This document shows, one piece after another, positions 3,274 to 62,757 of a stretch of DNA of 64,000 nucleotides. The stretch covers positions 10,357 to 74,356 of IMG/VR virus record IMGVR_UViG_3300025886_000011. One strand, 5' to 3'. A program made the translations under genes and the position numbers. Source of the DNA: a virus. The notes beneath the pieces were generated by a model. That model saw only the letters and a program-made list of their open reading frames with translations, did not search any database and was not told the DNA's origin. The first letter of the stretch is position 1, and every line of letters starts with the position of its first letter.

Positions 3274-3301
3274 TGAAACCATTTTACATTCTTCTATATA
3301 A
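3274..3301 (+). promoter_or_regulatory. Middle-type promoter (DNA-modification operon)
   Basis: TGAAAC-N16-ATATAA(TAATAA). Confidence 0.7.
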
Positions 3302-3321: not shown

Positions 3322-3873
3322 ATGGAAAGGTGCTTAATATTAGATTTTGACGATACTTTAGTTTCTACTATAGATACTCATGCCGATTCTTGGAGGCGTG
3401 CATTAGAAAGAGTTCTTAATAGAGATATTCCAATAGAGACCATAATGGCTGATATTAATTATGGTATGGATGTTCTTTTAAAGAAATATCAATTAACAGA
3501 TAATGAATCAAAATTAGCACAAGACTATAAACGAGACATATTTTCAAAGAATCTTTACAAAACTAAAATTAATCAATTACTTTTATGGGTAATAAAAAAT
3601 TCTAATTTTGAAAAGGTTATTATGGCATCTAATTCATCTAGGGAAAATGTAGATAGAATTATGACTTATCATAATATTAGTACTGATTTATTTGATCTTA
3701 TTGTAACAAGAGATAGTGTTTTAAATAAAAAGCCGCATTCTGATATGGCAGATTTAATATTTAAAACATTTCCTGAATATGAACCAACTGATTTTTTAAT
3801 GGTTGGTGATTCAGAAGTAGATTCAACATTCGCACTTAAAAACAAAATGAAATGCATACTGGTAAAGTTTTAG
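3322..3873 (+). CDS. HAD-superfamily phosphatase
   Basis: Motif I ILDFDDTLV, KKPHSD and motif IV VGDSEVD. Confidence 0.88.
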   Translation: MERCLILDFDDTLVSTIDTHADSWRRALERVLNRDIPIETIMADINYGMDVLLKKYQLTDNESKLAQDYKRDIFSKNLYKTKINQLLLWVIKNSNFEKVIMASNSSRENVDRIMTYHNISTDLFDLIVTRDSVLNKKPHSDMADLIFKTFPEYEPTDFLMVGDSEVDSTFALKNKMKCILVKF

Positions 3874-4598
3874 TAGGAAATAGTGGAGATAGAGTATATC
3901 TTCAGGATAACAAAGTTATCAAAGAAGCAGGTGTTTATCCTATAAAGTTTAAACAACAAATGGATTGGTTACAAAACTGTACTCATCCTAATTTTATAAA
4001 GATTAAGCCTATTTCAGATACCTCATTTGAAATGAAAAAACACCCTACATGGTACGATAAAATCTGTGAACAGCCTTTAGTTAAATCAATTGAACAATTA
4101 GATGATCTTATTCATATAGTAAATGACTTTGATGGTTATGGTGCTGATGTAGATGTAAGATCTTATTTGGATAAATTAGAAGGGCGAACTGGTTATAAAT
4201 ATGAAGGTGAATTAAATGCAACATCTAGTTGGGGTTTTGTACACGGTGATTTAACAGTAAGTAATATCTTATATGATAATGATTTTATTTTTATTGATCC
4301 GCGAGGTACTGAAGAACAGAATTATTATGACTATGGAAAACTGATGCAATCCTTTGTAATGAAATATGAGGCCCATATATACAATGAAAGGAATTCTAAA
4401 TATCTTAAGTTCTGTAGAGAAGCAGAAAACATAATGTATGAATGGTATGATGAATATCAATTAAAATTCTTTTTAGCGGTCCACTTATTAGGAGCAGTAC
4501 CTTTCTTTGAATTAAATGAAAGATATGAATTAGCTGGGATGTTCCTTAAAAAAGGCCATGAATTATTTGACGAATTAGAAATTAAATATAGCAAATGA
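3852..4598 (+). CDS. APH/choline-kinase-like phosphotransferase (putative sugar kinase)
   Basis: Brenner motif HGDLTVSNIL followed by FIDPRG and YYDYGKL. Confidence 0.8.
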   Translation: MHTGKVLVGNSGDRVYLQDNKVIKEAGVYPIKFKQQMDWLQNCTHPNFIKIKPISDTSFEMKKHPTWYDKICEQPLVKSIEQLDDLIHIVNDFDGYGADVDVRSYLDKLEGRTGYKYEGELNATSSWGFVHGDLTVSNILYDNDFIFIDPRGTEEQNYYDYGKLMQSFVMKYEAHIYNERNSKYLKFCREAENIMYEWYDEYQLKFFLAVHLLGAVPFFELNERYELAGMFLKKGHELFDELEIKYSK

Positions 4599-33069: not shown

Positions 33070-33097
33070 TGAAACAAATGCTATTTTTTCCATATAA
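33070..33097 (+). promoter_or_regulatory. Middle-type promoter (clamp loader)
   Basis: TGAAAC-N16-ATATAA(AAATAA). Confidence 0.7.
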
Positions 33098-51523: not shown

Positions 51524-51552
51524 TAAAACCTTTTTACATTTTAGCTATATAA
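51524..51552 (+). promoter_or_regulatory. Middle-type promoter (DnaQ-like exonuclease)
   Basis: TAAAAC-N17-ATATAA. Confidence 0.55.
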
Positions 51553-52432: not shown

Positions 52433-52472
52433 TTTTCAATTCCCAATTAAATTGATTATATTTATAATATAA
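52433..52472 (+). promoter_or_regulatory. Putative early promoter, copy 1
   Basis: TTTTCAATTCCCAATTA-N5-ATTATATTTATAATATAA; 34/40 identical to 62160-62199. Confidence 0.65.
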
Positions 52473-60722: not shown

Positions 60723-62141
60723 TTGAAGTATCTAAAATTATTTGAACAATTCCTAAATGAAAAGAAACCTAAAGGAGCACCAGACTTCCATCATTCTGAT
60801 GCACCTGATGCTGAAGGTAGATTTAAAGATCTTTCTATAAAAGATTTAGCCGCATGGTTAATTAAAACTAGAAAGAAAGATGTTAAAAAAATTAGTGGTT
60901 CTTTAACTCAGCAAATAGTTTTTAACAGAAAGAGTGACCCTAAGTATGCTGAAAAGATGGAGAAAACCAGAAAAGAAGTATATAAACAATTAGGCAGAGA
61001 AGATTTATTAAAAGAATATGTTGTAGAGGTAAAGAAACCTATCGATATTACTGTTGGTGGTAAAGAATATAAGCTTACTAAAAAAGGAAGTAAGATTACT
61101 CTAACTAATACTAAGTTATCCGCTGATAAGTTTATATTTAGAAATGAAAAAGAATTTAAAGAATGGGCTGATGATCAGGTAGAACCTATTGGTGGAACTC
61201 AATCATCTCATTTTGGTATCAGTGAATCAAAGGATAGTGAAAATGGTCTAGGTAAAGTTTATTTAGCATTAAGAGAAGATAGTGGACATAGATGGTGGAC
61301 TTATAAAGGTTTTGCTGGGGATAAGTTTTTTACACAAGTTCATGAAAACAATATGAATGACATTGATATTAATCCAGACTATCCAGTTTTAACCTATCAT
61401 TCAGATACAGTTAATAAACTAATAAAGGCTGGTAAGATTAAAAAAGAAAATGTTTATAATCACCCAGACCACATATCAAAATCTGGATCTAAGGAAGAAT
61501 TCCATAAACTGGTTGGAGAAGATGAAAATATACCTAAGACAGTATATTCTAAGAATGATGCATTAGAGCAATTAGAATTTCCTATTATTGCAAAACCTGC
61601 AGAAGGTCATAGTGGAGAAGGTATTCAAATAATAGAAAAGCCAGATTTAATGGAAGAGGTGGACGAAAAGATTTTTGATACCTTTTCAGAATACATTGAC
61701 AAGGCAGAAGAACATAGGTTTATAAACTTTAAAGGAAAGCCGATTTTTTGGATGGAGAGAACTCCTATAAATGAAAAGGCTAAGTCCGGTAAAGGTAGTG
61801 CTAAAGAAGCTATGGAGTTTGGATATGCTAAAAGAAATATTAAAGATTTACCTAAAGATTATAAAAAAGTATTAGAGAAGTTTTGTAAGATTTATGAAGA
61901 TTTGCCTTATATGTGTTTTGATGTTATGAAAGGTAAAAATGGAAAGGTCTATATTATTGAATCCAATGCTCAGCCTGGAGTACCTTTTGATTCTACTATT
62001 GAAGCTTATAAACATATCTATGAAGATTTTTATAAGAAATCTCTTGACGAAGAAAGTTTAACTAAATTAAATGAATATGCTAAAACTATGATTGAAAAGA
62101 CTCTTAAAAAAGATGGGGGCAAAAGATTTTCAATTAAATAG
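60723..62141 (+). CDS. Late protein with putative head-targeting leader and C-terminal RimK-like ATP-grasp domain (TTG start)
   Basis: MKYLKLFEQFLNE leader; IPKT..PII.KP..GHSGEGI, EYID..EHR, FDV, IESNAQPG. Confidence 0.78.
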   Translation: MKYLKLFEQFLNEKKPKGAPDFHHSDAPDAEGRFKDLSIKDLAAWLIKTRKKDVKKISGSLTQQIVFNRKSDPKYAEKMEKTRKEVYKQLGREDLLKEYVVEVKKPIDITVGGKEYKLTKKGSKITLTNTKLSADKFIFRNEKEFKEWADDQVEPIGGTQSSHFGISESKDSENGLGKVYLALREDSGHRWWTYKGFAGDKFFTQVHENNMNDIDINPDYPVLTYHSDTVNKLIKAGKIKKENVYNHPDHISKSGSKEEFHKLVGEDENIPKTVYSKNDALEQLEFPIIAKPAEGHSGEGIQIIEKPDLMEEVDEKIFDTFSEYIDKAEEHRFINFKGKPIFWMERTPINEKAKSGKGSAKEAMEFGYAKRNIKDLPKDYKKVLEKFCKIYEDLPYMCFDVMKGKNGKVYIIESNAQPGVPFDSTIEAYKHIYEDFYKKSLDEESLTKLNEYAKTMIEKTLKKDGGKRFSIK

Positions 62142-62159: not shown

Positions 62160-62199
62160 TTTTCAGTTCCCAATTATTTGTATTATATTTATACTATAA
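62160..62199 (+). promoter_or_regulatory. Putative early promoter, copy 2
   Basis: TTTTCAGTTCCCAATTA-N5-ATTATATTTATACTATAA. Confidence 0.65.
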
Positions 62200-62223
62200 C
62201 AGTTAATCTGTAAATAAAAACAT

Positions 62224-62757
62224 ATGCTTAACGATTTAGATATTCCTAAAGATTTTTATATAACTTCTGATACGTGGTTCGGTAGGCCGCAAATACTCCA
62301 AATAGCAAATAGGAGATTTAATGATATAGAAGAAATGAATGCTACTCTCATTAAAAATTGGAATAAAACGATAGGAAAGAATGATATTGTATTTCATCTA
62401 GGTAATTTTGCATGGGATCCACAAACTGCTAGGCAAGTTTTAAAGAAGCTTAATGGTCAAATCTATTTTATGATAGGAAATTCTGATGATGCATTTTTAG
62501 ATGTTCATCATGAATTTGATAATGTATCTGTTTTAGATGATCAAATTCTAGAAATGCCACAATTTGATTCTGTTATTTGCCATTATCCATTAGATGTATG
62601 GAATGGTAAGGATTCCGGTACTATTCATTTTCACGGTCACACTGTATTTTCTCACAAGACAGATTTATCTAAAATGAATAGAGTAAATGTATGTACAGAT
62701 TTTTGGAATTATACACCAGTAAATTATTTAACTATTAAAGATTTTATAAATGAGTAA
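62224..62757 (+). CDS. Calcineurin-like metallophosphoesterase fold, catalytically degenerate
   Basis: SDTW (for SDxH), LGNF (for LGDF), GNSD (for GNHD), HGHTV (for HGHxH); scaffold otherwise typical (EEMN..LI.NWN, CHYP..WN). Confidence 0.8.
   Translation: MLNDLDIPKDFYITSDTWFGRPQILQIANRRFNDIEEMNATLIKNWNKTIGKNDIVFHLGNFAWDPQTARQVLKKLNGQIYFMIGNSDDAFLDVHHEFDNVSVLDDQILEMPQFDSVICHYPLDVWNGKDSGTIHFHGHTVFSHKTDLSKMNRVNVCTDFWNYTPVNYLTIKDFINE

Follow-up and report, generated by a model that had tools for sequence, protein, structure and literature searches.

Genes and features of the locus

The locus lies in a 64,000-nucleotide stretch of viral DNA (hereinafter the window), taken from an IMG/VR record (IMGVR_UViG_3300025886_000011) that comprises 76,973 bases and is estimated to be 29% complete, which puts the phage genome at roughly 250 kb. 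All large ORFs of the window are on the + strand. Among them, an earlier inspection of the letters without database searches (hereinafter the sequence-only reading) had singled out a calcineurin-like phosphoesterase gene with a disrupted active site, which was said to be an uninterrupted reading frame and to overlap the start of a gene for an ECF-type sigma factor. Both statements agree with our analysis: the gene, whose product we call the pseudo-MPP (for metallophosphoesterase), runs without frameshift or truncation, and its end shares 8 nt (ATGAGTAA) with the beginning of the sigma gene, whose ATG is at 62750. The sigma factor passes the threshold of the NCBIfam ECF superfamily (55.6 bits against a cut-off of 42.9), and the gene that follows it encodes a conserved protein for which Pfam, PHROG, and NCBIfam returned no match. 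On the upstream side lies a gene for an ATP-grasp ligase (60723-62141; Pfam YheC/D-like; PHROG 'ribosomal protein S6 glutaminyl transferase'), and related loci have one or two ATP-grasp ligase genes at the same place. The features of the locus are collected in Table 1.

Table 1. Genes and putative regulatory elements at the pseudo-MPP locus, in window coordinates
Feature	Position	Strand	Basis
Pseudo-MPP (degenerate metallophosphoesterase), 177 aa	62224..62757	+	PHROG 547, 1xm7 fold match, alignments, tree
Phage ECF-type sigma factor, 213 aa	62750..63391	+	Pfam Sigma70_r2 and Sigma70_r4_2 above cut-off; TIGR02937
Promoter-like element TTTTCA-18 nt-TATATT	62160..62191	+	Consensus scan, 9/12 matches; conserved in relatives
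5'-leader hairpin ACAG-TTAAT-CTGT	62199..62211	+	Read from sequence, between promoter-like element and start codon
Conserved 150-aa protein with hydrophobic C-terminal segment	63416..63868	+	3' of the sigma gene

The membership of the pseudo-MPP in the metallophosphoesterase (MPP) superfamily is supported by both sequence and structure. It matches PHROG 547 'phosphoesterase' with an e-value (E 1.5e-33) that leaves homology in no doubt, and it shows a further sequence match to Aquifex aq_1665 (PDB 1xm7; E 6e-4). An AF2 model built from 43 sequences (mean pLDDT 85, pTM 0.83) displays the four-layer α/β sandwich of the superfamily, with 1xm7 as its best structural match (Foldseek E 2e-7; superposition Z 15.2, rmsd 2.8 over 160 residues), in keeping with the earlier claim of an intact calcineurin-like scaffold. 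Weaker fold matches include LpxH (Z ~10.6), Mre11/SbcD (Z ~8.5), MJ0936, and the inactive B-subunit of DNA polymerases delta/zeta (Z 8.5-8.9). Canonical MPPs of the PHROG 547/1xm7 type are homologous to the pseudo-MPP, with the same fold and length and 31-38% identity; however, unlike these, the clade to which the pseudo-MPP belongs falls below the detection limit of Pfam. Thus, a Pfam scan of the pseudo-MPP at E up to 0.1 recovered no family, PF00149 and PF12850 included, and NCBIfam YfcE scored 13.9 bits, below its cut-off of 56.

Loss of the canonical active site

The MPP signature D-x-H...G-D...G-N-H-[D/E]...H...G-H-x-H forms a centre of two metals, without which there is no catalysis (PMC8366450). 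We aligned the motifs of the pseudo-MPP with those of Bacillus phage Phrodo, Pseudomonas phage PaYy-2, the huge phages LR756508 and LR756504, and PDB 1xm7. Measured against these canonical homologs, the four replacements listed in the sequence-only reading (DTW, GN, GNSD, and HGHTV for DxH, GD, GNHD, and HGHxH) are real, as seen in the pairs SDTWF/SDTHF, HLGN/HLGD, GNSD/GNHD, and HGHTV/HGHxH, with HYP unchanged. Motif I reads D16-T-W18, the motif II segment with the bridging Asp reads G60-N61, and motif III reads G-N86-S87-D88; the motif IV histidine (H120) and H139 are present, and the last histidine of motif V has become V141 (H137-G-H139-T-V141). The alignment adds a fifth replacement, H21R, so that the changes are H18W, H21R, D61N, H87S, and H141V, with D16, N86, H120, H135, H137, and H139 unchanged. 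Among 109 canonical representatives, H18, D61, H120, H139, and H141 are each present in 100%, H87 in 99%, N86 in 97%, and H21 in 95%. Canonical PHROG 547 MPPs retain the catalytic His and every metal ligand; the pseudo-MPP clade has replaced H18, H21, D61, H87, and H141.

On the usual assignment of the ligands, metal site 1 has lost two of its four (H18W and H141V), the bridging Asp and the catalytic His of GNH have become Asn (D61N) and Ser (H87S), and three ligands of metal site 2 are left (N86, H120, and H139). Judged from these residues, the protein is very probably a pseudo-enzyme with a dismantled two-metal centre and no catalytic activity, and the database label 'calcineurin-like phosphoesterase' is probably wrong for such proteins as a statement of function. 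Two effects of H21R and D61N can be envisaged: the new residues would occupy the vacated metal site and neutralise it, or they would give rise to a site that accepts an anionic group without metal.

Retention of the protein and a single origin of the degenerate clade

A search of a collection of 5.8 billion proteins recovered 210 matches at E up to 1e-5. They come from assemblies of Tara (marine), JGI, ENA, and Logan, and the best 120 share 58-86% identity with the pseudo-MPP. Across the close sequences, W18 is present in 119/121 and N61 in 121/121, and residue 141 is hydrophobic throughout the best 120. Position 87, that of the catalytic His, is occupied by A, Q, or S. The median dN/dS of the gene (NG86, Nei-Gojobori; 238 pairs with dS between 0.05 and 1.5) is 0.17, and it is 0.05 between the pseudo-MPP and its closest relative, i.e., the protein is under purifying selection. 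We accordingly rejected decay or assembly error as the source of the replacements: they are kept in 120 metagenomic homologs and across a monophyletic clade (see below), and are not peculiar to one assembly. The homologs, the dN/dS, and the diversification of that clade support the earlier view that the protein has been retained and, very probably, does not act by catalysis.

A profile search against 1.84 billion cluster representatives retrieved 16,227 relatives, the best 150 of which fall into two classes: a canonical class, in which all ligands are conserved, and a degenerate class of about 40 representatives with mutual identity below 50% and [W/F/Y/Q]18, R21, and N61. A maximum-likelihood tree of 149 representatives places the 40 degenerate proteins in one bipartition (support 1.0) with no canonical member inside, which indicates that the active site was lost once. 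Over 39 degenerate representatives, R21 is found in 90% and N61 in 92%, H120 in 46%, and H139 in 6/39. A large deep branch has N16, Q18, E86, Y120, S135, I137, and Y139, and hence no metal ligand left; the pseudo-MPP of the window belongs to the least degenerate subclade. The single loss of the metal site was followed by diversification, in the course of which the deeper branches shed all remaining ligands and kept the fold. Across the degenerate family, position 18 is occupied by F, W, Y, Q, or M, in most members by an aromatic residue, and Trp is confined to one subclade; stacking of a base by the new Trp, as the sequence-only reading had imagined, therefore cannot be the mechanism of the family and was rejected.

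The residues conserved over 66 distinct pseudo-MPPs (28-97% identity) fall into two groups. The first comprises scaffold residues common to canonical and degenerate members (R30, M38, W46-N47, D54, L59-G60, L76, G78, D88, P122, W126, G138, and P165). The second is specific to the clade and lies in the former active-site loops (G20-R21, H58-L-G-N61-F-A-W64-D65, and D88), so that the newly conserved residues appear to cluster at the former active site, as judged by motif positions rather than measured distances. The family thus provides a clean natural example of the passage from enzyme to pseudo-enzyme, with a single origin, a stepwise decay of the site, and new conserved residues in its place.

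The conservation within the window's own subclade raises the question of a residual or altered enzyme, which would still catalyse a reaction, possibly on a different substrate, through a one-metal site made up of N61, N/S86, H120, and H139, with H135 and H137 nearby. There, H120, H135, H137, and H139 are each invariant (121/121), D16 and D88 are kept, and Asn can still coordinate a metal; with these histidines, the second site may still bind a ligand or a single metal ion. However, the metal-binding position 86 varies within the same subclade (N 60, S 49, T 6), the catalytic His is replaced by A, Q, or S, and two of the four ligands of metal site 1 are gone. Moreover, related branches that are likewise linked to the sigma gene (see below) have no histidine ligand at all, and hence the function shared by the family cannot be one-metal chemistry. 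We consider residual catalysis very improbable on this account.

A near-obligate gene pair with an ECF-type sigma factor

We next turned to the gene neighborhoods of the family. In 80/80 IMG/VR loci found with the pseudo-MPP (representing 66 distinct pseudo-MPP proteins, 28-97% identical), the sigma gene lies downstream in the same orientation; the distance stays within about 630 nt in 75/80, and the two genes overlap in about 40. Clustering of the neighbors in 62 distinct loci showed the sigma gene to be the next called gene in 48 and the second in 9, and the gene upstream of the pseudo-MPP to belong to at least 8 families. As the peptides used in this first scan (TSDTWFG and HLGNFAW) are biased to the clade of the window, the independent measure is a reciprocal scan with patterns from the sigma factor itself: it found a pseudo-MPP within about 1.1 kb upstream in 77/80 loci, and for two of the three exceptions, a search of the whole record located the pseudo-MPP on the strand of the sigma gene as well, at about 5.5 kb upstream. 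The same pair also occurs, usually with a 4-nt overlap, on independent metagenome contigs carrying pseudo-MPPs of other clusters (P0123, P0126, and P0136; <50% identity), and in the huge phage LR756500, whose pseudo-MPP is 50% identical to that of the window and reads DTM/GN/GNTD/HGHNY.

Canonical PHROG 547 MPPs occur in many cultured myoviruses; however, none of the five canonical relatives whose neighborhoods we inspected (Phrodo, PaYy-2, LR756508, LR756504, and Phaeobacter phage MD18) is beside a sigma gene. Further, two giant phages, with records of 429 kb and 254 kb, have a pseudo copy beside the sigma gene and a second copy elsewhere, which is canonical in the 254-kb record and, in the 429-kb record, canonical save for GNYD in place of GNHD. 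The linkage of the pseudo-MPP to the sigma gene is thus near-obligate and specific. The persistence of an active paralog in some genomes makes a comparison of the two forms possible.

This neighborhood bears on the possibility of a non-catalytic role unrelated to sigma, such as a scaffold in nucleotide metabolism or replication, with the pair co-transcribed only because both proteins serve the same infection stage. The upstream neighbors are often guanylate/thymidylate kinase-like, thymidylate-synthase-like, or ATP-grasp genes, and the inactive MPP subunits of DNA polymerases, which are among the fold matches, offer a precedent. Against this, the upstream context changes between lineages and the sigma gene stays; pairs only about 28% identical still show the linkage, which also persists where small genes have been inserted between the two partners. 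We regard a role of this kind as unlikely.

In a distant lineage (3467-4084 of locus L013), two ORFs, of 73 and 118 aa, come after the pseudo-MPP gene; the second has a weak Sigma70_r4_2 match (E 0.003), and this may represent a split or minimal sigma factor. No fusion of the pseudo-MPP to a sigma factor was seen among the candidates listed above 339 aa; that search gave only canonical MPPs, one with a methyltransferase fusion and one with an intein-like insert. The latter (477 aa) is a canonical phosphoesterase with a ~300-aa insert between motifs IV and V that resembles an intein by eye. A complex prediction from the sigma and pseudo-MPP alignments, run without controls, gave a score of 0.00, which counts neither for nor against contact between the two.

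Regulatory elements and the downstream gene

The promoter-like element upstream of the pseudo-MPP (Table 1) can also be read as TTTC-N19-TATATTTA. About 40 nt around it are nearly identical to 52434-52464, and about 30 related loci have the element conserved in front of the orthologous gene. As sigma-70-like consensus matches are not commoner in the region than in shuffles, the promoter call relies on this conservation in relatives and not on the consensus scan. The element fits transcription by a host sigma, and its timing is something we infer; accordingly, of the earlier description of the gene as lying behind a putative early promoter, the promoter-like element has held up and the word 'early' has the standing of a surmise. 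The leader hairpin has counterparts at the same place in relatives (L015-L052), in which the stem sequence differs and the pairing persists; a role of this RNA element in regulation or in stabilisation is possible.

On the other side of the sigma gene, a homolog of the 150-aa protein is found in 47/80 loci, and also in LR756500 and in the loci L008/L014, making it a looser member of the module. Its hydrophobic C-terminal segment makes it a possible candidate for a membrane-anchored anti-sigma factor.

Distribution and host

The family is diversified in large T4-like and giant phages from marine and other waters. The phage of the window is itself T4-like, as judged by the locus of a relative, which encodes a type II topoisomerase, PhoH, thioredoxin, Hsp20, and nucleotide kinases. 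Only 2 of 185,579 species-representative genomes contain the gene, both on MAG contigs, one of which is labelled Flavobacteriaceae, and the gene pair is essentially confined to viruses. Among deposited phages, the nearest relatives of the sigma factor are those of LR756500 and of crAss-like phages of Bacteroidales; together with the Flavobacteriaceae-labelled contig, these make a Bacteroidota host plausible. A search of GenBank phages found no near-identical phage record, and the degenerate form was not recovered from cultured phages, where the best matches, in phages of Bacillus, Pseudomonas, Vibrio, and Roseobacter, have the canonical motifs or nearly so (e.g., GCTHFGH/HLGD/GNHD/HCHTH in Phaeobacter phage MD18).

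Predicted function as a non-catalytic partner in a phage sigma switch

Of the three functions offered in the sequence-only reading, namely a sponge for CBASS/Thoeris signals, an RNA-end binder, and a regulator of the adjacent sigma factor, the last stands as the favoured candidate, the near-obligate gene linkage being the one line of evidence that sets it apart. We found nothing specific for the other two, and neither Pfam nor PHROGs names a sponge family for the protein.

The idea of a sponge can be broadened to a metal-independent binder of a small phosphorylated or nucleotide ligand, either an immune second messenger or an alarmone that tunes the sigma switch. The charge changes in the former phosphate-binding site would suit it, with D61N removing a negative and H21R adding a positive charge, as would the mostly aromatic position 18; together these suggest a pattern fit for metal-free binding of a phosphate or base. 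The promoter-like element, which a cluster of small genes has in common with the pseudo-MPP gene, would likewise agree with early expression. Tad1, Tad2, and Acb2 are phage sponges for immune signalling nucleotides; they are small non-enzymatic phage proteins, as the pseudo-MPP very probably is, and the pseudo-MPP could in principle bind nucleotides likewise. However, its model has the MPP fold and no known sponge family is named for it by Pfam or PHROGs; to our knowledge these sponges are not linked to sigma genes, and a sponge role would give no reason for the strict linkage seen here. In addition, the large deep branch has Q at position 18, and residues 86, 87, 120, and 135-141 vary freely between subclades, which is not expected for one conserved ligand. 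A ligand binder of this kind is, in our view, decidedly unlikely.

Inactive members of the MPP superfamily with binding functions are known from eukaryotes. In VPS29, the partner VPS35 binds a patch surrounding the catalytic site, which is incomplete (PMC5748213). VPS29 and the B-subunits of the eukaryotic DNA polymerases alpha, delta, epsilon, and zeta keep the inactive MPP fold as a protein-binding module, to which the pseudo-MPP may be likened by its fold; it too combines the MPP fold with an incomplete metal site under selection. There is no specific sequence relationship between it and these proteins, which implies that activity was lost independently. The comparison extends to the partners only in part: those of the eukaryotic proteins are known, whereas that of the phage protein is predicted from gene linkage.

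A second parallel is provided by proteins that act with phage or bacterial sigma factors. In T4, the sigma switching by gp33 with gp55 and by AsiA with MotA redirects host RNA polymerase (PMC7824862). The pseudo-MPP resembles the T4 accessory proteins, small phage proteins encoded or acting with a sigma-type factor, in its gene position, and resembles the anti-sigma factors of ECF sigmas in being a probable co-transcribed neighbor (8-nt overlap; 80/80 loci). Nevertheless, in fold it bears no relation to gp33, AsiA, or anti-sigma domains, and its gene is upstream of the sigma gene, whereas ECF anti-sigma genes are usually downstream. No anti-sigma family was recovered for it in Pfam or NCBIfam.

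Taking the gene linkage and the remodelled site together, we propose that the pseudo-MPP is a non-catalytic MPP scaffold working with the phage sigma switch in redirecting host transcription, a reading to which we would give an even chance. Under this proposal, the pseudo-MPP would be made together with the sigma factor and act without catalysis in the transcription switch of the phage, and its binding surface would be the remodelled face of the former active site, comparable to that of VPS29 with VPS35. The likeliest partner would be either the phage sigma itself, toward which it might act as a chaperone, co-factor, or anti-sigma, or the host RNA polymerase or primary sigma, in which case it would help the phage sigma to take over the core enzyme. 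Several considerations count against it. Conserved gene order in related phages can be inherited without functional coupling, and the genes of phage operons are often grouped by timing rather than function. ECF anti-sigma factors usually lie downstream of the sigma gene and have a different fold, and it could be the downstream membrane-type protein, and not the pseudo-MPP, that fills the anti-sigma role. Finally, the four invariant histidines of the window's subclade would leave room for a metal-dependent activity or for small-ligand binding unrelated to sigma.

More tentatively, and with distinct doubt, we raise the possibility that the sigma-linked pseudo-MPPs constitute an unrecognised class of sigma accessory, in which an enzyme fold has become a binding subunit for the phage ECF sigma or for host RNA polymerase, is maybe gated by a ligand or metal in what is left of the pocket, and is required for the switch to middle genes in a widespread group of marine T4-like and giant phages lacking MotA/AsiA. 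Inactive MPP-fold scaffolds and phage sigma accessory proteins are each already known; our literature search found no description of the pseudo-MPP family or of its pairing with an ECF sigma. In a survey of jumbo phages, the only enzymes of calcineurin-like type to be mentioned are SbcD, phosphodiesterases like T5 A1, and phosphatases of RNA repair (PMC7824862). T4-like and giant phages are abundant in the ocean, and the timing of their gene expression is largely unknown outside T4. If the proposal were true, a phage ECF sigma with an obligate enzyme-derived partner would represent a new way to take over host RNA polymerase, and the interest of the family would be the greater if binding to the transcription machinery were shown. 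The pair also offers a concrete handle on uncultured phages, as its two small proteins can be expressed and tested together.

A separate observation concerns possible promoters elsewhere in the window. Strict matches to TRAAAC-N16/17-ATATAA occur at 3274-3301, 33070-33097, and 51524-51552, all on the + strand and 19-47 nt before ORF starts (3 observed against 0.32 expected by chance); as an AAC-type -35 fits a promoter of an ECF sigma, these three may be targets of the phage sigma factor.
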